Assembly (NCBI GenBank): GCA_030649835.1
Contig: JAUSES010000029.1
Coordinates: 4,130-68,129, forward strand
Source: a bacterium
GTDB lineage: Bacteria > Patescibacteriota > Minisyncoccia > Phycocordibacterales > UBA1550
Length of the DNA stretch: 64,000 bases
Direction of reading: 5' to 3'
Below, piece by piece: positions 4,267 through 58,799 of the stretch (its first letter is position 1; the number at the start of each line of letters is the position of its first letter). The translations under genes and the position numbers were made by a program. The notes under the pieces are model-generated. The model was not told the DNA's origin. It worked only from the letters and a program-made list of their open reading frames with translations, and did no database searches.

Positions 4267-6183
4267 TTAAACCTCAAACTTCTTCTGAATAATTCCTCTC
4301 GGTGCCTCAACTTCTTGCGAGAAATCTGCCTGTGCGTAGGAGCCATCCTGTCCTTTTCTCATCACGCCCACATTGTATGTTCCCTTTGCCACCAACATAT
4401 AGTATCTGCCGAGTGCATCGGTAATACTTTTTCGCACCTCAACCTTACTATCCGGATGGGAAACTTTCACGACGCCAAAAGCAAGAGGGAGCCCCGTCTC
4501 TTTTTCAATGACTACCCCATGCGGTCTGTCCCCAGTTCCTACCTTGCGGAGAACCCAAACAAAAACATACAGTCCCCAAATTGCAAAATTATACGGCTGA
4601 GGATCAATAAAAATAATAAAAAGAGTTACAATAAAACCAACTATAAATAGGATGCGCGATAGTCGCTCAATAAAAATAATATTACGCGAATAAAACCCCA
4701 TAAGGTGCTGTGTGCGTTTTGCATATTCGTTCCAGTCAAACCCTTCGGGGTCCATGGGAATATCACGCGCAAGAAATGCCCCACCTTCAGTTAGTATAAG
4801 AGGTTCCCCAAAATATAGATTTCCGTAAAACTCATCCGCTGTTTTCCCCGCAAGCACCGTTGACGGAAATTTATAATTTGTTTTATTTACTACAATGCGA
4901 TAGATCCCCGGGGGCGCAAAAAACCCATACCGTCCATCAAGGTCAGTAAATGCCGTCGCAACTTCTTTCCCCTCAAGGGTTTGCAGTTCAACATACGCAG
5001 GATCAAGTGGTTGTTTTGTCACACTGTCATACACAGCGCCCCATGGGCGATGACGACGTTTGAGCCCAAACACGGTGAGCAGGAGTCCCCACAGCTGTGC
5101 GGGAAGTAGGAGCAACTCAGAAAATGAAAATGCCTGCGCAAACAGAAGCGAAAAGAGAGACGTGGTTCCTCCCATCACTACACCAGCAGTAGTTACCGTA
5201 TTACTTGTAATCGCCCCCTGAGGTGTATCTAAAACTATTTTTGCCCCTTGCCGAACATTATCAACTGACTTACGCGCCTGTACCGTACTTCTGTTTACTG
5301 ATTCTTTTGCATTTGAAAATGCGGTGCCTATGCTCGTGATAATATTACCGACTTGTTCTGAAACAGTGTTAACCACTGACGAAAAAGTACCTCCTCCTCC
5401 GCCACCCCCACCAGATGACCCACTATTATTTTGCCCTCCATTTTGCCCTCCATCGGGAGAAGGAATTGGGATTGGAGTAGGGGTTGGTTCTAATGTAGGA
5501 GTTGGAGTTGGGGTGGGCGCAGGTTCTGGTACGGGTGTAGGTTCGGGTATCGGCGTTGGAGGAGGTGTTGGTTCTGGGGTCGGTTCTGACGTTGGTGTAG
5601 GTGGCACAACCACTGGTCCCCCTCCCACAGGATCCGTTTCATTATTGTCACCTGTCCCTGTACACCCAGGATCTGTGGGATAATCTACTTTCCCATCACT
5701 GTCATCATCAATAACATTGCTACACTGTGGAGGTAACCAGTTTGTTTGTACTTTGTGTGAGAGCGTGCCACACGTGCTATCTGTCGCGCAGCTAAAAACA
5801 AGCCAGCCTTTTGTTTCACTCCACGCATAGCCATTAAAGTTTCCCGATGCATCGATGGTCACCCCGCCATTTGTGGGCTTAAAATTTATCCAGCCTGTGT
5901 TTTGCCCCCATGCATACCCGGTAAGGACGCCACTTCCGTTGTTTGTCACACCGCCATTTGTGGGTGCCAAATTGATCCAGCCAAAATTTGTACTCCATGC
6001 GTAACCAGTTATGTTTCCGCTATTCACCACCACGCCACCATTCGTACTACCAAAATTCACCAAAGAATTGTCATCCAAAAACCGCGCATACTTGTTTGTT
6101 GTATCAATGGTCCCCGCAGATGTAAGAAGAGGGACGGCGAAAAAGAAAAAAAGAGTGAGGGCGAGACGCTTCATTGACAACAT
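4267..6183 (-). CDS. modular membrane/surface protein: signal peptide, four Trp-rich beta-repeats (GYAWSxxxGWINF), a Pro/Thr-rich linker, a Gly-rich tract, TM helices and two carboxypeptidase-regulatory-like (CarboxypepD_reg-type) domains
   Basis: ORF-track translation shows a PTPEPTP linker, a GGGGGGGG run, hydrophobic helices, and motifs 'DLDGRYGFFAPPGIYRIVV' and 'DALGRYYMLVAKGTYNVGV'. The track starts at a TTG; the true start is probably MKRLAL at ~6174. Confidence 0.6.
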   Translation of the reverse strand: MLSMKRLALTLFFFFAVPLLTSAGTIDTTNKYARFLDDNSLVNFGSTNGGVVVNSGNITGYAWSTNFGWINLAPTNGGVTNNGSGVLTGYAWGQNTGWINFKPTNGGVTIDASGNFNGYAWSETKGWLVFSCATDSTCGTLSHKVQTNWLPPQCSNVIDDDSDGKVDYPTDPGCTGTGDNNETDPVGGGPVVVPPTPTSEPTPEPTPPPTPIPEPTPVPEPAPTPTPTPTLEPTPTPIPIPSPDGGQNGGQNNSGSSGGGGGGGGTFSSVVNTVSEQVGNIITSIGTAFSNAKESVNRSTVQARKSVDNVRQGAKIVLDTPQGAITSNTVTTAGVVMGGTTSLFSLLFAQAFSFSELLLLPAQLWGLLLTVFGLKRRHRPWGAVYDSVTKQPLDPAYVELQTLEGKEVATAFTDLDGRYGFFAPPGIYRIVVNKTNYKFPSTVLAGKTADEFYGNLYFGEPLILTEGGAFLARDIPMDPEGFDWNEYAKRTQHLMGFYSRNIIFIERLSRILFIVGFIVTLFIIFIDPQPYNFAIWGLYVFVWVLRKVGTGDRPHGVVIEKETGLPLAFGVVKVSHPDSKVEVRKSITDALGRYYMLVAKGTYNVGVMRKGQDGSYAQADFSQEVEAPRGIIQKKFEV

Positions 6184-17740: not shown

Positions 17741-18337
17741 ATGTCCTACTTAATCCCAACTGTTATTGAAAAGTCGCCACAAGGCGAACGTGCGTATGAT
17801 ATTTACTCGCGCCTACTCAAGGAGCGCATCATTTTCCTTTCGGGCGCTATTGATGATGACACGGCAAACATCACCATCGCTCAGCTTCTTTTTCTTGAAT
17901 CTGAAGATCCAAAAAAAGATATTTCTTTATACATCAACTCCCCCGGTGGCTCCGTGACTGCAGGAATGGCGCTCTACGACACCATGCAACACGTGAAGCC
18001 AGATGTTTCTACTATTTGTGTTGGAATGGCAGCATCAATGGGTGCAGTGCTTCTCTCTGCGGGCGCAAAGGGTAAGCGTTTCATACTTCCCAATGCTGAG
18101 GTAATGATTCACCAGCCACTCGGGGGCACCGAGGGGCAGGCGTCCGACATCGCCATCACTGCAAAACATATTTTGAAAATAAAGGAGAATTTGAATAAAA
18201 TACTTTCAAAAAACACCGGCAAGCCTCTCGCACAAATAGAAAAAGACACCGACCGCGACTTTTTCATGTCCGCCGAAGAGGCTAAAAAGTATGGCATCAT
18301 CGACGAGATTTACAAACCCAAGAATCCGCGAAGCTAG
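17741..18337 (+). CDS. clpP: ATP-dependent Clp protease proteolytic subunit
   Basis: [11 protein letters not shown] (Ser), MIHQP (His) and the Asp of the catalytic triad are present. Confidence 0.9.
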
Positions 18338-18403
18338 CCTGCAAAAAAACATCCCCCGCCTTTTTGAAAAAGGCGGGGGATGTTTTTTTGCAGGCTAGCT
18401 TCG
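18331..18403. terminator. long perfect palindrome acting as a bidirectional terminator between clpP (+) and the AAA ATPase gene (-)
   Basis: gaagctagcctgcaaaaaaacatcccccgcc tttttgaaaaa ggcgggggatgtttttttgcaggctagcttc. Confidence 0.6.
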
Positions 18404-19818: not shown

Positions 19819-21351
19819 ATGGACATTAACATTGCACTCACGCTGGGCGGCGTGATGGCAATTTTGGTCGGAGCGATACTAGGCTATGTTTTGCGGTGGT
19901 TTATTTCAATCAGCAAACGGGGATCTGTTGAAATAGAAATAAAGCAGGTGCTCCTTTCTGCAAAGGAAGAGGCACAAAAAATAATAGAAGATGCCGACCG
20001 AAAAGCCGAAGTGTACGGACGCGAGCTTCACGAGGAAGAACGCGAACAAAGTGAACGATTCAAAAAAATAGAAGAGCGACTTATAAAAAAAGAAGAGTTT
20101 CTCGACAAACGACAGCTTGATGTAGATGGCGAAGCAAATCAGATAAAAGAAAAGGAGGAGGAGCTCCGTATGCTCCGTGAAAAAACAAAAAAAGAAACGG
20201 AGCTTGCGCGTCATGAGCTTGAGCGTGTTGCACATCTCGACACAGAGAGCGCAAAAGAGGAATTACTAAAGCGCGTGGAAATGCAGAGTGAGGAAGACAT
20301 CCTCGTACGTATCAAAAAAATAGAGACCGATGGAGAAGCTCGCCTTGCATTAAAAGCACGCGATATCCTTGCGACATCCATTCAGCGTCTCGCTACTTCC
20401 ACCGTCGCAGAAATGATGGCAACTTCGGTTCCTATTGCATCAGATGAAATCAAGGGGAAGATTATTGGGAAGGAAGGCCGTAATATCCGCGCATTTGAGC
20501 GCGCAGCGGGTGTTGAGGTTATTATTGATGACACCCCAGGCTCTATCCTCATTTCATCTTTTGACCCCGTTCGTCGGCAAATCGCTCGTGTAGCACTCGA
20601 GCAACTCATAGAAGACGGGCGTATCCAGCCTGCAAAAATAGAAGAGGCTGTGGAAAAAGCAAAAGAAGAAGTAAATAAAATAACGAGAGAGAAAGGCGAG
20701 CAGGCTGCATATGAGTGTGGTGTGTTCAACCTTGACCCGCGCATCATTGCCATCCTTGGGCGCCTTCATTTCCGTACAAGCTTCGGACAAAATGTTTTGC
20801 AACACTCAATAGAAATGGCGCACATAGGCGGAATGATAGCAGAGGAAATAGGCGGAGATGTCGCCGTCACAAAAGCAGGAGCGCTCCTTCACGACCTCGG
20901 CAAGGCGGTAGACCACGAAGTGCAAGGGACCCATGTGGAAATTGGAAGAAAGATTCTGCAAAAGTTTGGCGTGGATGTGCGGATCATCCAAGCAATGCAG
21001 TCCCACCACGAGGAATACCCCTACGAGACACTAGAGTCAATTATTGTCCAGACTGCAGACTCCATTTCTGGTGGGCGCCCCGGTGCGCGACGTGACTCTG
21101 CAGAAAACTACATAAAGCGCCTTGAAGACCTTGAGGGTATTGCAAAATCCTTCCCCGCTGTGGAAAAAACCTATGCAATACAAGCCGGAAGAGAGCTTCG
21201 CGTGTTTGTACGCCCAGAGGAAATCAGCGACCTCGAAGCAAAGAAGCTTGCGCGCGACATCGCAATACGCGTAGAAAAGGAGCTCAAGTACCCAGGTGAA
21301 ATAAAAGTAGCAGTGATTCGTGAATCACGAGCGATAGAGTACGCGAGGTAG
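19819..21351 (+). CDS. rny: ribonuclease Y
   Basis: N-terminal TM, coiled coil, KH (IIGKEGRNIRAFE) and HD (LLHDLGKAVDHE) domains. Confidence 0.9.
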   Translation: MDINIALTLGGVMAILVGAILGYVLRWFISISKRGSVEIEIKQVLLSAKEEAQKIIEDADRKAEVYGRELHEEEREQSERFKKIEERLIKKEEFLDKRQLDVDGEANQIKEKEEELRMLREKTKKETELARHELERVAHLDTESAKEELLKRVEMQSEEDILVRIKKIETDGEARLALKARDILATSIQRLATSTVAEMMATSVPIASDEIKGKIIGKEGRNIRAFERAAGVEVIIDDTPGSILISSFDPVRRQIARVALEQLIEDGRIQPAKIEEAVEKAKEEVNKITREKGEQAAYECGVFNLDPRIIAILGRLHFRTSFGQNVLQHSIEMAHIGGMIAEEIGGDVAVTKAGALLHDLGKAVDHEVQGTHVEIGRKILQKFGVDVRIIQAMQSHHEEYPYETLESIIVQTADSISGGRPGARRDSAENYIKRLEDLEGIAKSFPAVEKTYAIQAGRELRVFVRPEEISDLEAKKLARDIAIRVEKELKYPGEIKVAVIRESRAIEYAR

Positions 21352-21373
21352 GACAGAAATAAAATTGTGTATT

Positions 21374-21414
21374 AGTAAGCCCCTGATTTTGCTTCGCAAA
21401 ATCAGGGGCTTACT
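21374..21414 (+). terminator. rho-independent terminator after rny
   Basis: agtaagcccctgattttgc ttcg caaaatcaggggcttact. Confidence 0.6.
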
Positions 21415-21461
21415 AAATTAATAGTTCAAAAAATAAACCCCCAAAAGTCCAAGTCCCCAAT

Positions 21462-21497
21462 TTCGCAATAAACAGCTATAGCTGTTTATTGCGCGAA
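21462..21497. promoter_or_regulatory. ~35-bp palindrome P1 (ttcgcaataaacagctatagctgtttattgcgcgaa) just upstream of the PaaX-like gene
   Basis: Perfect dyad. A near-identical palindrome P2 lies at 22141..22190, just downstream of the same gene. Confidence 0.6.
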
Positions 21498-21505
21498 TCA
21501 ATTAA

Positions 21506-22111
21506 GTGGTATATACTATCAAAATGTCCGCAAGTAAACTCCAAAGGCATGCGCGCCAAAAGCCCCGTCGTAGTGCCTTGCAGCAAAAAATTCTTCTTCT
21601 CTTGTCCGCTGGCCTCGCGCTCGGGCTTACCCGTAACCCAAATCAATACTTTCGCATTGTACGAGAGGCAGGAAAAGAGTTGGACAAAATAAACCGCGGC
21701 TCTCTTAATCGCGCGATCCGCTCTCTGTATGAATCAAAGCTTGTTTCCACAAAAGACAACCATGATGGCACACTGACACTAGTGTTGTCTAAAGAAGGGA
21801 AGCAGCTTGCGTTGACGTACAACATTAATAACATGGAGATAAAAAAGCCGACACAATGGGACGGAAAGTGGCGGATTGTGATGTTTGATGTGCCAGAGCC
21901 ACTCAAAAAAGTGCGCGACTCGCTTCGTATGCATTTTAAAAATATGGGATTTTATGAATTTCAGAAATCTGTGTTTGTGCATCCGTATCCGTGCGCAAAG
22001 GAGATAGAGTATATTGTGGAGTTTTATGAGGCGCAAAAATATATTCGATTTATTGTTGCGACAGATATTGATAACGCACTGGAGCTGAAGAAGAATTTCC
22101 ATCTTCTTTGA
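21506..22111 (+). CDS. PaaX-like transcriptional regulator domain protein (wHTH plus PaaX-C-like domain)
   Basis: WDGKWRIVMFDVPEPLKKVRDSLRMHFKNMGFYEFQKSVFVHP resembles the PaaX C-terminal domain (Cas2/VapD-like fold). Confidence 0.45.
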   Translation: MVYTIKMSASKLQRHARQKPRRSALQQKILLLLSAGLALGLTRNPNQYFRIVREAGKELDKINRGSLNRAIRSLYESKLVSTKDNHDGTLTLVLSKEGKQLALTYNINNMEIKKPTQWDGKWRIVMFDVPEPLKKVRDSLRMHFKNMGFYEFQKSVFVHPYPCAKEIEYIVEFYEAQKYIRFIVATDIDNALELKKNFHLL

Positions 22112-22140
22112 ACGCTCAGTGTCACCGCCCCCGCCGCCAC

Positions 22141-22190
22141 TCTCTCCCGCGCAATAAACAGCTATCGCTGTTTATTGCGCGGGAGAGAGC
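22141..22190. repeat. 45-bp palindrome P2 (ctctcccgcgcaataaacagcta tcg ctgtttattgcgcgggagag)
   Basis: It shares its core with P1 and sits between convergent genes, so it is likely also a terminator. Confidence 0.6.
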
Positions 22191-22317
22191 TAGTGGGAAA
22201 CATTAGTGTTATTTCCGTACGTGTCTTTAGTAAGGGGTTTTATGGTTTTGCAGAAAAAAGCCCACTGCGCCTTGGGAGACGAGCGGGCTGAATTAGAACC
22301 AAAATATTGTATAGAGG

Positions 22318-23049
22318 TTAAGAAACTGCTGAACGGAGACCGCACCGCGCGCCCGAACTGCCGGGGCCGTCCCAATGCACGCGCACCCTGTCGTCGTCCA
22401 GGCCCACGCTCGGCACATAGCCATCGGCACGGCGAGAACCGGTGCAGAGTGTCCACCCAATGATGTCCAAGTGTTCCCCCGTTTCATCGAAATAAGAAAT
22501 CTCGAGAAACATCCTCTCAAGAAGCGTCATTCCGATTTTCATGTCAGGATCCGCTTGGTAGGTCGACTTGCCCAAATACTTCTCATCAGGTTCTACCCCT
22601 ACACGTACCCAAATGGCATACGTTTCCTTGGTGTCGCGCGCATTTTTTGTAACACTCTCATCAAGGTTATCAGAATATTTCCAACACTTGAATGCTTTGC
22701 TCATTCGGTCATACACTTGATTCAGTGTCAGTCCACGCGCGATGATAAGCAAACGCCAATCGCCTTCTGTTGGCACATCAGGGATATGCACGTCAGCTAC
22801 ATTGAGGTCAAGCGAAAAATACTTCTGGTAGAATTTCCGCCAGGCTTCGCGCTTCTCAACATACAAGTCGGTTTGATTGAACATCTCCCGTAATTGCTTG
22901 CGGATTGATTCCTTCTTGCCGATATAATACTGTAGTTGGGAATCAGTCATTTGACTGAAAATTGCTATTAGTATCTCAGTGATAAACCCGATGAGAATGC
23001 CGATTTTCGTAAAGAATTTCGGGCTTTTGGGGGTCTGTTCCATTTTCAT
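22318..23049 (-). CDS. hypothetical membrane-anchored protein (N-terminal TM). The 3' ~130 nt are anomalously GC-rich.
   Basis: ORF. The N-terminal helix is IGILIGFITEILIAIF. Confidence 0.4.
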   Translation of the reverse strand: MKMEQTPKSPKFFTKIGILIGFITEILIAIFSQMTDSQLQYYIGKKESIRKQLREMFNQTDLYVEKREAWRKFYQKYFSLDLNVADVHIPDVPTEGDWRLLIIARGLTLNQVYDRMSKAFKCWKYSDNLDESVTKNARDTKETYAIWVRVGVEPDEKYLGKSTYQADPDMKIGMTLLERMFLEISYFDETGEHLDIIGWTLCTGSRRADGYVPSVGLDDDRVRVHWDGPGSSGARCGLRSAVS

Positions 23050-34511: not shown

Positions 34512-34527
34512 GCCCTATCCGCACAAT
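34512..34527. repeat. direct repeat of the tRNA-Gly(GCC) 3' end (ccctatccgcacaat), ~195 bp distal to the tRNA
   Basis: Exact 15-nt repeat of 34318..34332. The intervening segment starts with tgcggatagag (tRNA 5'-like) and contains ggagaatcgaaagccgg, shared with the element next to tRNA-Gly(TCC). Confidence 0.55.
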
Positions 34528-34579
34528 AAATATAAAATAGTCAGCCTCTCTTGAGAGGCTGACTATTTTATATTTATTG

Positions 34580-34651
34580 TGCCCACGCCAGGATTCGAAC
34601 CTGGAATAACGGTTTCGAAGACCGTTGTGATATCCATTTCACTACGAGGGC
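34580..34651 (-). tRNA. tRNA-Arg (anticodon TCG)
   Basis: Acceptor with one T·T mismatch, anticodon loop CTTCGAA, T-loop TTCGAAT. Bidirectional terminator hairpin at 34541..34566. Confidence 0.7.
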
Positions 34652-38795: not shown

Positions 38796-38847
38796 CCTAA
38801 CTATCTACTTATAAAATACTATCGTATTTTATAAGTAGATAGTTAGG
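38796..38847. repeat. 52-bp near-perfect palindrome (cctaactatctacttataaaatac tatcg tattttataagtagatagttagg) at the junction of the xth fragment and the toxin-antitoxin cassette
   Basis: Seen directly in the sequence. Confidence 0.7.
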
Positions 38848-40068: not shown

Positions 40069-40118
40069 CTCACCCACCATACATTCCAAGTCATGACTTG
40101 GAATGTATGGTGGGTGGG
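40069..40118. repeat. 48-bp perfect palindrome (cacccaccatacattccaagtcatgacttggaatgtatggtgggtg) between the ParD promoter region and the xth stop
   Basis: Seen directly in the sequence. Confidence 0.7.
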
Positions 40119-44329: not shown

Positions 44330-44445
44330 TTTGGGACAGGAAGAACCGAGAGACAAGTGAACGCCCAATCGCTACGCGATTGGGCGTTCACTTGTCTCTA
44401 TTCCTTGTTCCCACCCGTCCCAAACGTTCCCCCTGTCCACGCGTA
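44330..44445. repeat. family-T palindromic element copy 2 (gggacagg…agagacaagtgaacgcccaatcgctacgcgattgggcgttcacttgtctct…gtcccaaacgttcc…cctgtcc)
   Basis: Hairpin with a GCTACGCG apex; likely terminator of the transporter gene. Confidence 0.6.
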
Positions 44446-55584: not shown

Positions 55585-55666
55585 AGTCAGCACAAAAAAG
55601 AAACAGATGCCTCGCCAAAACTTTGGCGAGGCATCTGTTTCTTTTTTGTGCTAAAGTAGCTACACC

Positions 55667-57610
55667 ATGGAACACCTCGCTCATCTAAATGAAAAACAAA
55701 AAGAGGCGGCGATGCACAAAAATGGCCCTCTTCTCATCATTGCAGGTGCGGGAACTGGCAAGACGAGCACACTCACGCACCGTATTTTAAATCTCGTAAA
55801 GGAAGGTATTGCGCCGAGCGAAATACTCGCCATCACCTTTACCAACAAAGCCGCAAAAGAAATGGGCGACCGCGTAAGTGAGCTTTTTTTGAAACACGGT
55901 TTTGATGCCGGCGTACGCTACGGCGACGCGCGTCCCTTCATTGGCACGTTTCACTCTCTTGGCGTGCACATTCTCCGTGCGCATGCGCAGGTGTTTGGGC
56001 TCACAAAACATTTCACTATTGTAGACAAAAATAGCGCAAGCTCGCTTATCAAGGAGGCGATGAAGGAGCAGGGGCTGGATTCAAAACAGTTTCCTCCGGA
56101 CCGCATTGCGGGCGTCATCTCTCGGCAAAAGGGCGCGCTTGTTACGCTTGCTCAATATAAAAGCGATGTGGGAAATGCGTACTTCCCGATGATTGTTTCC
56201 GCTGTATGGGAGCGCTATGAGCGTCTCCTCGCACGCGAAAGCGCGCTTGATTTTGATGATCTTATTTTAAAAACAGTAATCCTTCTTCGTGACCACGCTG
56301 AAATCCGCCGTGCATATCAATCACGCTGGAAGTACGTTCATATCGATGAATACCAAGACACCAACGCAGTGCAGTATGAAATGGCGCGCTTGCTCGCGGG
56401 TGAAACAATGAACATTTGCGCGGTGGGGGACGGCGACCAAAACATTTACAGCTGGCGTGGCGCAAACCTTCAAAACATTTTGAATTTTGAAAATGACTAC
56501 AAGGGCGCACAGACAATTCTTCTCGAGGAAAATTATCGCTCTACACAAACCATTCTCGCTGCTGCAAACGACATTATCAAAAAAAACACGGTACGTAAAG
56601 AAAAAAATCTTTTTACCAGAAATGCAGAGGGCGACAAAATTTCTCTCATTGAAAGCTACGATGAAGGGGGCGAGGCGCGCACCGTAGGAGAAAAAATAAA
56701 ACACCTAATAGACAGTGGCACCGACCCAGAAGCTATTGCCGTGCTCTACCGTGCAAACTTTCAATCCCGCGCACTTGAAGAAGCGTTTCTTATGATGGAG
56801 ATACCGTACCAAGTCCTTGGTGTTCGTTTTTTTGAACGTAAAGAAGTGAAGGATGTTTTATCTTTCATTCGCGCGGCTCTCAACCCCGAAAGTCTGTCGG
56901 ATATCAAGCGCATTATTGATTCACCTCCGCGCGGTATCGGAAAAGCGACCCTCATGAAAATGTTTGCAAAAGACGAAGCGAGCCTCACGCCCGCTGCCCA
57001 AAAGCGCGTGAAGGAATTTTGGGCACTTCTAGAGTCAATCAAGGAATTCGCTCTTGTAGAAAAAACCTCCAATCTTATTAAATTTGTTTCTGAAAAATCA
57101 GGACTTGAGACATCTCTCAAGACAGGGACCGACGAGGACAATGACCGTCTTGAAAATATTCACGAGCTCGTAACGCTCGCCACAAAGTACGACTTTCTCC
57201 CACCAGAAGAGGCAGTGGAAAAACTTTTGGGAGATGCAGCTCTCGCAAGCGACCAAGACTCAATGATGAAAAGCTCCCGTGCAGTCAAAATGATGACGGT
57301 GCACGCTGCAAAAGGCCTTGAATTCCCTTACGTATTTGTGACAGGGTTGGAGCAAGATTTGTTTCCGCACAAACGCATGGGGCCAGGAACTGGCTCAAAA
57401 GAAGACAGCGAGGAGGAGCGCCGGCTTTTTTATGTGGCTATCACGCGCGCAAAGAAAAAACTTTATCTTTCGTACGCATCCGTACGCACTATTTTCGGAC
57501 AGCGCCAGGTAAATGCTCCGTCAGAATTCCTATCCGACATCGACGACGCTCACACCGAGCACGAAGTTGGCAACACCGACAACGAGCCGGTGATTAATAT
57601 CAGCTGGTAA
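55667..57610 (+). CDS. pcrA: ATP-dependent DNA helicase, UvrD/PcrA/Rep family
   Basis: Motif I AGAGTGKT, motif II DEYQDTN, motif VI VAITRAKK. Confidence 0.85.
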   Translation: MEHLAHLNEKQKEAAMHKNGPLLIIAGAGTGKTSTLTHRILNLVKEGIAPSEILAITFTNKAAKEMGDRVSELFLKHGFDAGVRYGDARPFIGTFHSLGVHILRAHAQVFGLTKHFTIVDKNSASSLIKEAMKEQGLDSKQFPPDRIAGVISRQKGALVTLAQYKSDVGNAYFPMIVSAVWERYERLLARESALDFDDLILKTVILLRDHAEIRRAYQSRWKYVHIDEYQDTNAVQYEMARLLAGETMNICAVGDGDQNIYSWRGANLQNILNFENDYKGAQTILLEENYRSTQTILAAANDIIKKNTVRKEKNLFTRNAEGDKISLIESYDEGGEARTVGEKIKHLIDSGTDPEAIAVLYRANFQSRALEEAFLMMEIPYQVLGVRFFERKEVKDVLSFIRAALNPESLSDIKRIIDSPPRGIGKATLMKMFAKDEASLTPAAQKRVKEFWALLESIKEFALVEKTSNLIKFVSEKSGLETSLKTGTDEDNDRLENIHELVTLATKYDFLPPEEAVEKLLGDAALASDQDSMMKSSRAVKMMTVHAAKGLEFPYVFVTGLEQDLFPHKRMGPGTGSKEDSEEERRLFYVAITRAKKKLYLSYASVRTIFGQRQVNAPSEFLSDIDDAHTEHEVGNTDNEPVINISW

Positions 57611-57649
57611 ATAATAGACCTCCTTCAAAAGTCGTAATCTTACCACCGA

Positions 57650-57765
57650 GTGTCTTTATCTGTCTTTGCGAGAAGGTACCCCGACGTGGCAATCTACAGG
57701 TTATTCCTGGATGCTTCTGAATCAGCAGATTCACGTCTTGGACGCAAGCCTCGCAAAGACACGAG
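57650..57765. repeat. family-2 element copy (gtctttgcgag … gattcacgtcttggacgca … ctcgcaaagac)
   Basis: Terminal IR GTCTTTGCGAG/CTCGCAAAGAC. Confidence 0.6.
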
Positions 57766-57929
57766 GAAGGACTTTTGAAAGAGGTCTAATATTTACAATT
57801 TTGTGCTTCCTCTACCATGTCTTCGCACATACATCCCAGCAATAGAACGCTATAGCGTTCTATTGCGCGGAGGAGATTTTTATAAAATATTGTGGTTTTT
57901 GAAGGGTGGTTGGTATACTCATAACATCT

Positions 57930-58799
57930 ATGGTTTATGCGAAAAAATCACTGGGGCAGAATTTTTTAAATTCGAAAACTGTTGCACGTGACATTGTGCG
58001 GGCAGGGGAACTTTTGCCTACCGACACCGTACTTGAGATCGGCCCAGGGAAGGGGTTTCTTACAGTCGAGCTTCTTGCGACGGGGGCCCGTGTGGTTGCA
58101 GTAGAAAAAGACGACAGAATGATACCAATACTTCAGGAAAAGTTTGCAAATGAGATCAAAAAAGGCCAACTTTCGCTCATTAATGCTGATATCATGGATG
58201 TTTTTCAAAATAAAGGACCGTCCTTTATTTTTGGGGCAAAGAAGGAGAAAATAAAGGACGGTCCTTTATTTGAATACAAACTTGTGGCTAATATTCCATA
58301 CTATTTAACAGGACAAATTATTCGCACATTTTTAGAAGCGGGAAAAAAGCCCGAGCGAATGATCTTGATGCTCCAAAAAGAAGTAGCAACACGCATCGTT
58401 GCACGCGACAAAAAAGAAAGCATCCTTTCCATCGCGGTAAAAGCCTATGGCACACCAAAGCTTATAAAAAAGGTCCCTGCGCGCTACTTTACTCCCTCAC
58501 CAAAGGTTGACTCTGCTATTCTTGCTATTTTAAATATTTCAGGAAAACATTTTCTCGACAAAAAATCGGAGGAACATTTTTTTGAAATTGTTCGCGCTGG
58601 CTTTGCTCACAAAAGAAAATTCCTTGCAGGAAATTTAAAGGAATTTTTTAAAGAAAAAACGGCAGATATTCTCAAAGGTGCAAATATTTCAGAAACTGCG
58701 CGAGCAGAAAACCTCACTCTGGAAAATTGGCTCGCTATTGCGAAACGAAGTCCACGGGCACACCAGTGTCTGAAGACAAGGATGTCCCCGCGGTCATAA
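57930..58799 (+). CDS. rsmA: 16S rRNA (adenine1518/1519-N6)-dimethyltransferase RsmA/KsgA
   Basis: MVYAKKSLGQNFL…LEIGPGKGFLT…NIPY. The 3' end may be shorter than the ORF. Confidence 0.8.
   Translation: MVYAKKSLGQNFLNSKTVARDIVRAGELLPTDTVLEIGPGKGFLTVELLATGARVVAVEKDDRMIPILQEKFANEIKKGQLSLINADIMDVFQNKGPSFIFGAKKEKIKDGPLFEYKLVANIPYYLTGQIIRTFLEAGKKPERMILMLQKEVATRIVARDKKESILSIAVKAYGTPKLIKKVPARYFTPSPKVDSAILAILNISGKHFLDKKSEEHFFEIVRAGFAHKRKFLAGNLKEFFKEKTADILKGANISETARAENLTLENWLAIAKRSPRAHQCLKTRMSPRS

Follow-up and report, generated by a model that had tools for sequence, protein, structure and literature searches.

PaaX is a dimeric autorepressor that binds an inverted repeat and sterically hinders RNA polymerase at its own promoter, Px (PMC9493321). 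The PaaX proteins of E. coli and Pseudomonas (8A39, 3L09) have an N-terminal winged helix and a central Cas2-like domain, PaaX_M, and are the best structural match to the product of a regulator gene in the window, the 64-kb stretch of DNA analysed here, from an ultra-small bacterium of the CPR/Patescibacteria (W among the compared loci). Unlike PaaX, this product lacks the ligand-binding C-terminal domain for phenylacetyl-CoA, and no paa genes are nearby. The PaaX site, TGATTC-N27-GAATCA, is found at catabolic promoters, whereas the window gene is bracketed by a pair of long perfect palindromes, P1 and P2, and belongs to a family in which a genome has many paralogs and every paralog its own site.

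The systems of lambda CI (OR/OL), LacI (O1/O2/O3), and the looping MarR-type ScoC (PMC12297555) resemble the locus in having cognate sites on both sides, one of them at the promoter. The specificities of phage immunity regions likewise diversify as linked repressor/operator sets. In contrast, the window has one predicted site per end, only the putative repressor gene is bracketed, and there is no phage context. The sites are also much longer than those of lambda CI, LacI, and ScoC and are perfectly symmetric, and looping and oligomerisation are here proposals from sequence. The layout does have one feature of a looping operator pair, at least two predicted cognate operators with one at the promoter: P1 covers the putative -35 element, and P2 is 686 bp away.

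Insertion sequences and the unit in the window are alike in consisting of one gene with repeats presumably bound by the encoded HTH protein, in having the -35 in the left repeat, and in a copy number of several per genome, with locations that vary among relatives. The unit differs in having no transposase fold, in its old, divergent copies with their own ends and no recent ones, in ends that are themselves palindromic, and in positions that are syntenic across genera. REP/RAYT and dif/attC modules also contain one gene flanked by palindromic repeats. However, REP elements occur as many dispersed copies and the RAYT protein belongs to the HUH enzymes, whereas the palindromes described here are nearly confined to cassettes. 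The dif/attC sites are set by a host recombinase and show no co-variation with the cargo, whereas the palindromes of this family track the recognition helix.

The C-terminal domain of the regulator shares the ferredoxin fold of Cas2/VapD, with the Asp at the catalytic position conserved. In contrast to these proteins, it scores just under the family cut-offs and is fused to a winged helix (195 aa in total), with no neighbouring cas genes. Stand-alone Cas2 has approximately 90-110 aa and is next to cas1 and a CRISPR array. True PaaX, Cas2, insertion sequence, REP/RAYT, and canonical terminator were all rejected as the identity of the unit. In the literature, no publication was found that links PaaX-like/Cas2-like proteins of the CPR with flanking palindromes, and no description of the cassette was found.

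Encoded protein

The initial annotation assigned the gene a 201-aa product from GTG 21506. The likely start is instead ATG 21524, which gives 195 aa, in agreement with P0001, the protein in the database, and with homolog N-termini. The earlier label "PaaX-C-like" is wrong, as the Pfam match is PaaX_M (PF20803, residues 110-182, E = 2.3e-22, 79.3 bits against a cut-off of 24) and the C-terminal domain of PaaX is missing. PaaX_C has no Pfam match at E ≤ 1, and the protein stops at residue 195, directly after PaaX_M. The score for the PaaX equivalog TIGR02277 (29.2 bits) does not reach the cut-off of 264.55, and the Cas2 models PF09827 (21.0 vs. 23.8) and TIGR01573 (24.4 vs. 24.5) are below theirs.

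No sequence model matches the N-terminal domain, and the support for the winged helix is structural. The AF2 monomer model comprises helices at residues 18-35, 39-55, and 58-71, followed by a beta hairpin at 74-88. The best Foldseek matches are E. coli PaaX (8a39) and Rv0674 (3kfw), with Cas2 proteins next, while the solved structures include no sequence-level match, even by profile search. The Cas2-like domain has D122, E125, H137, H153, C157, and E160 among its invariant residues, and the Asp at the Cas2 catalytic position (MFDVPE) is invariant. This strongly conserved domain may have an activity of its own.

Pfam, NCBIfam, and PADLOC detected only PaaX_M/Cas2-like matches and no transposase (DDE, HUH, Ser, Tyr) or recombinase domain, and Y1_Tnp has no Pfam match in the regulator protein. 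A defence system was considered and rejected, with PADLOC giving weak Cas2 matches only. The neighbours in the window are RNase Y (rny), a protein of unknown function, a methyltransferase, an AAA ATPase, and ClpP. No paa or cas genes are among them (for cas, within approximately ±4 kb of the gene).

Palindrome pair and promoter

Table 1. Coordinates of the regulator gene, its palindromes and putative promoter elements, and a solo palindrome in the window.
Feature	Position	Strand	Description
Regulator gene	21524..22111	+	195 aa; winged helix and PaaX_M (Cas2-like); no PaaX_C
P1	21464..21493	n/a	Perfect 30-bp palindrome with halves CGCAATAAACAGCTA and TAGCTGTTTATTGCG, 5' of the gene; proposed promoter-proximal operator
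-35-like hexamer	21489..21494	+	TTGCGC, inside the right arm of P1; read from sequence
-10 hexamer	21512..21517	+	TATACT, 6 nt before the ATG; read from sequence and family geometry
P2	22140..22189	n/a	3' copy of the palindrome, 50 bp, hairpin; proposed distal operator and boundary hairpin
Solo palindrome	57839..57866	n/a	GCAATAGAACGCTATAGCGTTCTATTGC; member of the same palindrome family with different arms, of the L002/L004 type; no adjacent family gene; uvrD-ksgA site

The palindrome pair around a single gene, as described initially, is confirmed. The core common to P1 (21464-21495) and P2 (22150-22181) has 32 nt, 31 of which are identical, and the sole difference is at the dyad centre (GCTATAGC vs. 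GCTATCGC). The core had been said to start with GCGCAAT and to contain two variable positions; the P1 core starts with CGCAAT, and one position varies. With a 1-nt bulge allowed, the P1 dyad spans approximately 21460-21498. P2 consists of the core extended by CTCTCTCCC and GGGAGAGAG, and its arms (22140-22162 and 22167-22189, 23 nt each) are 100% complementary around a 4-nt loop. It starts 28 bp past the stop, in line with the earlier value of about 30 bp. P1 ends approximately 28-30 bp before the start, and not about 10 bp, because the likely start is ATG 21524. Family-wide, the distance between P1 and P2 is 608-839 bp, with no helical phasing, which is uninformative at about 690 bp.

Core matches in the window, with up to three mismatches allowed, are P1 and P2 only, and none of 100 dinucleotide shuffles has any. 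The window contains 15 long palindromes; an arm sequence is common to the P1/P2 pair only, and the other 13 are unique. On these two observations in the window, a generic terminator motif repeated at unrelated sites was rejected, the outcome that the initial annotation had named as evidence against a specific pair. No further full or half-sites of the window type were found above chance in the 64 kb. Rfam matches in the window are tRNAs only, with none at the palindromes or at 57500-57950.

The predicted promoter has the layout TTGCGC-17 nt-TATACT-6 nt-ATG. The -10 is only 6 nt from the ATG, which implies a leaderless or near-leaderless mRNA. The arrangement TTGnnn-17 nt-TATACT recurs in W, L002, L004, L008, L012, L014, L015, L016, and L099, and in the last of these the spacer sequence has diverged while the promoter geometry is unchanged. 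TATACT is 6-7 nt from the ATG in many loci. A -10 at +32 to +34 from the dyad centre is present at 19 of 41 P1 sites, compared to 5 of 41 P2 sites, and in other subfamilies the palindrome covers the -10 instead of the -35. At least 10 other genes of the window are also preceded by TTG-N16-18-TATACT-N6-10-ATG. The promoter at P1 went undetected in a consensus scan, as TTGCGC agrees with TTGACA at only three of six positions. P2 was rejected as a promoter in the window, as neither strand carries a -10 at a distance of 16-18 nt from the TTG of P2.

Family-wide layout and protein-DNA covariation

Two copies of one palindrome flank the gene in 56 of 74 dereplicated, non-redundant homologous loci (34-88% identity) and in none of 222 shuffles, at a score of at least 17 for the shared upstream/downstream element. 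This comparison of relatives, which had been proposed as a check, establishes that the bracketed gene recurs family-wide with its own palindrome pair. The layout holds from 88% to 40% identity, and probably to 34%, and homologous loci have an equivalent palindrome at the P1 position. The palindrome differs among paralogs and genomes, and the two copies at one gene match. Dyad symmetry outlasts massive sequence turnover, with 92.8% paired cells (55% in shuffles) and a covariation score of 0.90 (0.2 in shuffles). The other proposed check, a search for more copies, yields the two in the window and, in 484 kb, 122 family palindromes adjacent to cassettes vs. 6 orphans.

The 195-aa protein has 714 close homologs, and clustering of the family (E ≤ 1e-10) at 50% identity gives 1733 clusters. 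Loci of the regulator family in metagenomes number more than 540. Small genomes contain 3-6 paralogs each. Viral contigs, a phage collection, and plasmids have no relatives apart from one distant PaaX, and a phage or plasmid origin was rejected on this basis. The cassettes are neighboured by housekeeping genes that are unrelated and vary with the context. L053 is a two-gene unit with a palindrome at the 3' end of each gene, and its P1 lies between the divergent promoters of the regulator and a nucleotidyltransferase gene.

When residue columns were compared with base positions in an unbiased scan, residue 63 and half-site position 13 came out as the top pair. Arg occurs with G in 29 of 29 cases, Gln with A in 3 of 3, and Glu/Asp with C in 3 of 3, counts that represent few independent events and are partly confounded by co-inheritance. 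Residue 63 sits in predicted helix 3 (SLNRAIRSLY), the recognition helix. In the sister loci L036 and L039, which are 85% identical, Q63K is paired with A13G in all four half-sites. The covariation argues that the encoded protein reads both sites. The inner 4-5 bp beside the centre change rapidly, with no obvious matching change in the protein. Between N-terminal arm motifs and inner bases, PKKG/TTCTC is the sole notable association, and RRSALQKK occurs with many inner sequences.

Cassette turnover

The W cassette lies between rny and a 243-aa gene, and its L099 counterpart between uvrD and ksgA. Their proteins are 88% identical, the core CGCAATAAACAGC is identical, and nucleotide homology sets in about 10 nt to the left of P1 and again at P2. 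The uvrD-ksgA site contains full cassettes of differing types in at least nine other genomes, and in the window just the solo palindrome. This palindrome is positionally homologous to P2 of L099, with W 57831-58399 aligning with L099 1548-2090. In a test for a P1xP2 deletion scar, its right flank is homologous to the L099 P2 flank, and the similarity of its left flank to the L099 P1 flank is not significant (score 44, shuffle maximum 49).

Paralogous copies in one genome share 67-86% identity, and their palindromes differ from copy to copy. Cassette pairs of at least 93% identity all have near-identical flanks, and thus no recent movement is seen. Synteny across genera is seen for several cassette positions, and the junctions in the window show no recognisable target-site duplication. 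An empty-site test of the rny/243-aa junction found no clean empty site, because homologs of the 243-aa gene occupy other contexts without palindromes. The gene and both palindromes evolve as one unit, which is slowly turned over and at times relocated or lost. The initial suggestion of a one-gene cassette delimited by recombination or att-like sites therefore stands in part: the unit occupies different loci in relatives, and its loss can leave a solo palindrome behind, but no sign of an active recombination/att system and no recent copies are seen.

Proposed function of the cassette

The same layout in nearly every relative, each with its own palindromes, looks like a self-contained, fast-diversifying repressor/operator cassette. 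It is fairly probable that the unit represses itself and is insulated, with P1 as the operator at the promoter and P2 as a distal operator or boundary hairpin. Autoregulatory operators are the best supported of the three options offered initially, as suggested by the putative -35 in the right arm of P1 and the Arg-G/Gln-A/Glu-C covariation. PaaX_M is the dimerisation module in PaaX, and the 195-aa protein most likely binds as a symmetric dimer to both cognate palindromes. P1 overlaps the predicted core promoter, and because its right arm holds the -35, its occupancy would occlude RNA polymerase and repress the gene, as with PaaX at Px.

P2 would be the second cognate site, acting as a distal operator and boundary. 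It may cooperate with P1 via a loop of about 690 bp, or serve as a protein roadblock that halts or ends transcription into or out of the unit, and either role could be aided by a very stable hairpin or by cruciform potential. The gene 3' of P2 is convergent in 35 of 68 loci, including the window, and co-oriented in 33, and P2 is kept in both; its role is therefore that of the cassette and not of the neighbour. A hairpin or boundary role for P2 may apply. With different palindromes in paralogs and orthologs, each repressor would be insulated from the operators of the others, and such repressor/operator sets are at times moved or deleted. A further rationale is needed for a repressor that has hardly any target besides itself.

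It is unlikely that the palindromes are primarily nucleic-acid structures, i.e., non-canonical bidirectional RNA terminators/insulators or DNA cruciforms that isolate the gene, with the ends kept identical by gene conversion and with protein binding secondary or absent. Such structures would be consistent with the RNA fold of the 3' region at P2 (-57 kcal/mol, z = -9.7), the long perfect hairpins in most intergenic regions of the window, the palindrome 3' of each gene in L053, and the outer arms, which are consistently C-rich on the 5' side and G-rich on the 3' side. The arms reach 20-33 bp, and half-sites of this length are beyond the reach of a winged-helix dimer. The outer arms differ between P1 and P2 yet are perfectly self-complementary, and core differences between P1 and P2 alter both arms together in 24 cases vs. 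13 single breaks. The paired changes and self-complementary outer arms point to an additional constraint, from a hairpin or cruciform, or to homogenisation of the arms, neither of which follows from simple operator logic. However, P2 has no T-tract, whereas canonical terminators elsewhere in the same genome carry one. No terminator-like call is present in 21300-22400, and TTTT occurs within 10 nt of P2 at 4 of 41 family sites. A canonical intrinsic terminator at P2 was rejected on these grounds, and the terminator duplicated as an operator, as suggested at first, is unsupported in the canonical sense. G-U cells are very rare in the arms, mismatches (G.T 6 vs. A.C 4) have no strand bias, and the asymmetric centre (GATA or TATC) is found in both orientations in the alignment. 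There is thus no sign of selection on one RNA strand, and a strand-specific RNA signature was rejected. P1 is also upstream of the predicted transcription start, and nucleic-acid structure explains neither the tracking of the recognition helix nor why the unrelated terminators of the window are all unique. An ordinary local regulator, with autoregulation at P1, P2 as the operator of a downstream gene or operon, and more paralog regulon sites across the genome, is very unlikely. In several loci the TATACT of a co-oriented downstream gene is 41-43 nt from the P2 centre or promoter-spaced (L008/L027, L005), ksgA in the window and a YebC-like gene in L004 each have an orphan palindrome upstream, and the divergent promoters around P1 of L053 agree with such a role. 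It is opposed by the retention of P2 next to convergent neighbours, by the lack of a -10 at P2 of the window, by the rarity of orphans, by the lack of additional window-type sites above chance in the 64 kb, and by the varying housekeeping neighbours.

A mobile or recombination cassette, a one-gene element with the palindromes as its ends or as sites of recombination, is decidedly unlikely. Excision, integration, and exchange would be due to the encoded protein, with the winged helix for site recognition and the Cas2-like domain as nuclease, or to a host recombinase. The similar cassettes at different sites in W and L099 with homology edges near the palindromes, the different occupants of the uvrD-ksgA site, the 3-6 copies per small genome, the invariant catalytic-position Asp, and the -35 inside the left repeat, a classic insertion sequence layout, are in line with mobility. 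The absence of a transposase or recombinase domain, the divergence of copies within genomes, the shared flanks of the most similar pairs, the synteny across genera, the lack of target-site duplications and clean empty sites, and the failure to find the family in viral contigs, phages, or plasmids all argue against it. The co-variation of the ends with the cargo is further evidence against a host Xer- or integrase-type site. An autonomous relocatable unit of a new kind, whose protein acts on the palindromes at the ends of its own gene and drives excision, exchange, or homogenisation, is likewise improbable. The protein could, for example, act on extruded cruciforms or hairpins at their conserved centre, C-(T/G)-A-T-(A/C)-G. 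If true, the family would not be a conventional regulator but a selfish element of CPR genomes, slow to move and resembling an immunity region.

Significance

Genomes of CPR/Patescibacteria are tiny and contain very few regulators that can be recognised, and hardly any experimental genetics exists for this group. In this family, the predicted binding sites can be read straight from the flanks of each gene. The autorepressed cassettes would thereby provide a testable catalogue of natural, mutually distinct repressor/operator pairs and a first candidate recognition rule, in which residue 63 reads base 13. The orthogonal pairs are possible parts for synthetic biology. For uncultivated bacteria, the loci also offer direct evidence on how promoters are built and on leaderless expression. 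A regulator whose predicted sites bracket essentially itself alone is an unusual design, and the candidate reasons for it include insulation, a second activity of the Cas2-like domain, and selfish behaviour.

Palindrome pair

P1 and P2, the palindromes upstream and downstream of a single winged-helix/PaaX_M (Cas2-like) gene, have in common a core of 32 nt with a single mismatch at the dyad centre (GCTATAGC versus GCTATCGC). They are the sole two matches to this core in the 64-kb window at up to 3 mismatches, and none of 100 shuffles has any match. Among the 15 long perfect palindromes of the window, the arm sequence is common to this pair only. The possibility of a generic terminator motif, raised in the initial annotation, is therefore not borne out: there are two copies in 64 kb, and the arms are unlike those of the 13 other long palindromes. 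The P2 RNA hairpin is predicted to be very stable (-57 kcal/mol, z=-9.7). P2 has no T-tract in the window and so does not qualify as an intrinsic terminator; a T-tract occurs at 4 of the 41 P2 sites family-wide, and unlike P2, canonical A/T-flanked terminators are present at other places in the window.

Features of the cassette and of the solo site (window positions)
Feature	Position	Description
P1	21464-21493	Perfect 30-bp palindrome CGCAATAAACAGCTA/TAGCTGTTTATTGCG, read directly from the sequence
-35 element	21489-21494	TTGCGC, within P1 right arm
-10 element	21512-21517	TATACT, 17-nt spacer from -35, 6 nt to ATG
Regulator ORF	21524 (best start, ATG)	195 aa; homolog N-termini align to this start
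P2	22140-22162 and 22167-22189 (arms)	23 nt each, 100% complementary, 4-nt centre
Solo palindrome	57839-57866	Arms of the type in loci L002/L004 from other genomes; between uvrD and ksgA; no family gene nearby

Most intergenic regions of the window contain very long perfect palindromes or hairpins with arms of 20-37 bp, each unique in the window (for example 18329-18403, 34521-34582, 40071-40116, 44349-44399, and 55589-55652). Some have UUCG-type loops, and others are perfect through the centre, like the 46-bp palindrome at 40071-40116 (GTCATGAC). The centre of a 52-bp palindrome at 38796-38847, ACTATCGT, fits the family pattern C(T/G)AT(A/C)G; its arms are unrelated and AT-rich, with no family gene nearby.

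Occurrence across the family

Homologous loci comprise 17 from reference genomes, 80 from metagenomes, and a few from exact look-ups. Nearly all homologs are bracketed, with a long palindrome directly upstream and a second copy directly downstream. In a dereplicated set with sufficient flank, 56 of 74 loci have an element shared between the two sides (cut-off score ≥17), versus 0 of 222 shuffles. The layout is kept down to 40% protein identity (L105), and is probably also present at 34% (L106). The family has 1733 clusters (50% identity, E≤1e-10), nearly all of about 180-200 aa, and several paralogs per genome, with six in one MAG and three on one contig in another. Searches of viral, phage, and plasmid collections found no family member. 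In 484 kb of window and loci, 122 family-type palindromes adjoin a cassette (P1, gene, and P2) versus 6 orphans, 3 of which lie within 750 bp of a cassette. No further window-type sites above chance occur in the 64 kb.

An orphan 60-bp palindrome of the CAGCAATTATCC type in a Yonathbacteria genome (L004 343-402) lies upstream of a YebC/TACO1-like gene and is missing at the syntenic site of another (compare L002 1000-1040). N runs in the genome collection fall on or next to palindromes (L002 1619-1620, L004 1690-1825), and the one in L004 conceals its downstream copy from the analysis.

Encoded protein

The 195-aa protein is found verbatim in a public Patescibacteria MAG (locus tag Q7K40_01480). 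Its sole Pfam match is PaaX_M (E=2.3e-22), the central Cas2-like domain of PaaX, the phenylacetyl-CoA-responsive repressor of E. coli and Pseudomonas. Foldseek places E. coli PaaX (8a39) and Rv0674 (3kfw) at the top, followed by many Cas2 structures; the PDB has no match at sequence level. The Cas2-like domain is strongly conserved in the family, and so is its Asp at the position that is catalytic in Cas2. The protein may work like a truncated PaaX. In contrast to PaaX, it lacks the PaaX_C effector domain, falls far short of the equivalog threshold, and has no paa context. Cas2 identity is likewise rejected, with scores slightly under the model cut-offs, and the cassette as a whole does not classify as an IS element or REP/RAYT. 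Housekeeping genes flank the cassette. Upstream is RNase Y, which has a hairpin of its own at 21372-21416; downstream come a convergent gene, whose 243-aa product is of unknown function, and a methyltransferase gene.

Promoter

The TTG/17-nt/TATACT/ATG geometry is seen again in many loci with unrelated spacers, and also in L099, the closest relative. Measured from the dyad centre, a -10 lies at +32 to +34 at 19 of 41 P1 sites versus 5 of 41 P2 sites, and for the P2 of the window neither strand carries one. Palindromes of other subfamilies overlap the -10 itself. A simple consensus scan leaves the P1 promoter uncalled because its -35 matches just 3 of 6 positions, which leaves comparative conservation as the basis of the case. 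These comparisons indicate that P1 forms part of a promoter and that P2 does not. P2 is kept irrespective of the direction of the next gene (convergent at 35 loci, co-oriented at 33).

At least 10 other window genes are preceded by leaderless promoters of the same form. Many window genes have TTG-N16-18-TATACT/TATAAT just 6-10 nt from the start codon and no Shine-Dalgarno sequence, for example at 6174(-), 8330(+), 12042(-), 16960(-), 33502(+), 42261(-), 46004(+), 57930(+), and 60387(+). Leaderless transcription thus appears common in the source genome.

L053 1685-3085 has three copies of one palindrome, in the order Pal0, nucleotidyltransferase gene (-), P1, regulator (+), P2. P1 is flanked by the leaderless promoters of both divergent genes, each with an extended -10. 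The nucleotidyltransferase may be a regulated cargo.

Palindrome anatomy and probable recognition

The centre is (T/G)AT(A/C), or GATC/CATG in other subfamilies, enclosed by an invariant C...G. GC usually adjoins it; outward from there come 4-5 inner bp that evolve fast, an A/T-rich block with TG at its end (TATTG in the group of the window), and variable outer arms. In the dyad alignment (A2), whose outer columns are biased as members were chosen for being palindromic, 92.8% of cells are Watson-Crick paired; shuffles give 55%, and slid partners no more than 43%. Covariation scores 0.90 versus about 0.2, and G-U cells are very few. The twofold symmetry is, by these measures, kept despite massive sequence turnover. 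A gene's two copies usually have the same core sequence; where their cores differ, both arms changed jointly in 24 cases versus 13 single breaks. Outer arms are consistently rich in C on the 5' side and in G on the 3' side; the sequence being palindromic, this polarity is intrinsic and independent of gene strand. From the outer arms of some palindromes (L009 3650-3700, L017 2300-2330), short GAGAGT/CTCTCA-type repeats continue outward.

Protein clusters follow palindrome type, not genomic context. In an unbiased mutual-information scan of residues 10-104 against half-site positions 3-20 in 38 loci, the best pair is residue 63 and base 13 (Arg-G 29/29, Gln-A 3/3, Glu/Asp-C 3/3), with few independent events and with gene and sites co-inherited. 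These pairs reflect classical side-chain/base preference. Residue 63 lies in predicted helix 3 (SLNRAIRSLY), at the recognition-helix position of the winged helix. Between L036 and L039 (85% identical), Q63K occurs together with A-to-G at position 13 in 4/4 half-sites. This is good evidence, short of proof, that the encoded protein reads its palindrome. Residue/base correlation analysis has a precedent in GntR-family regulators (PMC4494728).

Cassette turnover

At least 9 other genomes have a full cassette in the uvrD-ksgA intergenic site, and the palindromes there are of many different types. L099 has there a cassette of the type that adjoins rny in the window (protein 88% identical, palindrome core identical). 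Nucleotide homology between these two cassettes sets in about 10 nt to the left of P1, extends as far as the stop codon and picks up again at the P2 core. The window has at uvrD-ksgA the solo palindrome, about 48 nt upstream of the ksgA -10, which aligns with L099 P2 and on into ksgA. It follows that the P1-gene-P2 unit has undergone relocation or differential loss, and that its deletion can leave one palindrome behind. Either a deletion left the solo palindrome as a scar, or a paralog encoded outside the window acts on it in trans. Cassette movement is not recent: in every pair of cassettes at least 93% identical the flanks are equally identical, and several positions are syntenic across genera. 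A clean empty site was sought and none was recovered.

The window cassette is located at a synteny breakpoint. The gap from stop codon to P2 is merely 28 nt in the window; in L099 a segment of about 180 nt with a long internal inverted repeat (1369-1550) is inserted there. In relatives, homologs of the 243-aa neighbour adjoin an IS200-like Y1 transposase or reverse-transcriptase gene (L102 2161-2853, L103 2602-3387). Between uvrD and the solo palindrome lies a strongly structured, rod-like RNA candidate of about 190 nt (57607-57797; MFE -75 kcal/mol, z=-7.4), for which Rfam gives nothing at a cut-off as loose as E≤1. A homologous segment is present in L007 (3729-3823, nhmmer E=4e-8), where it follows the cassette gene. 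The candidate may be a small RNA that is 6S-like or specific to CPR bacteria.

Proposed mechanism and significance

Autorepression of a self-contained cassette is the best-supported mechanism. A protein dimer would bind P1 and occlude the -35; PaaX likewise represses at its own promoter (PMC9493321). P2 would be a second cognate site, serving as distal operator or boundary through looping, roadblock, or hairpin-assisted insulation. The bracket resembles repressor genes flanked by cooperating operators. Formally, it also resembles an insertion sequence with a promoter in its left repeat.

Plain operator logic fails to explain that the perfectly symmetric arms far exceed a winged-helix footprint, that the four half-sites evolve in concert, that other targets are nearly absent, and that the Cas2-like domain, with its catalytic-position Asp, is so strongly conserved. 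Because of these features, a hairpin- or cruciform-based role of the palindromes and a slowly mobile selfish cassette stay alive beside autorepression. No description of the palindrome-bracketed arrangement was found in the searchable literature. The interest of the cassette family is that it is very widespread, very regular, and directly testable.
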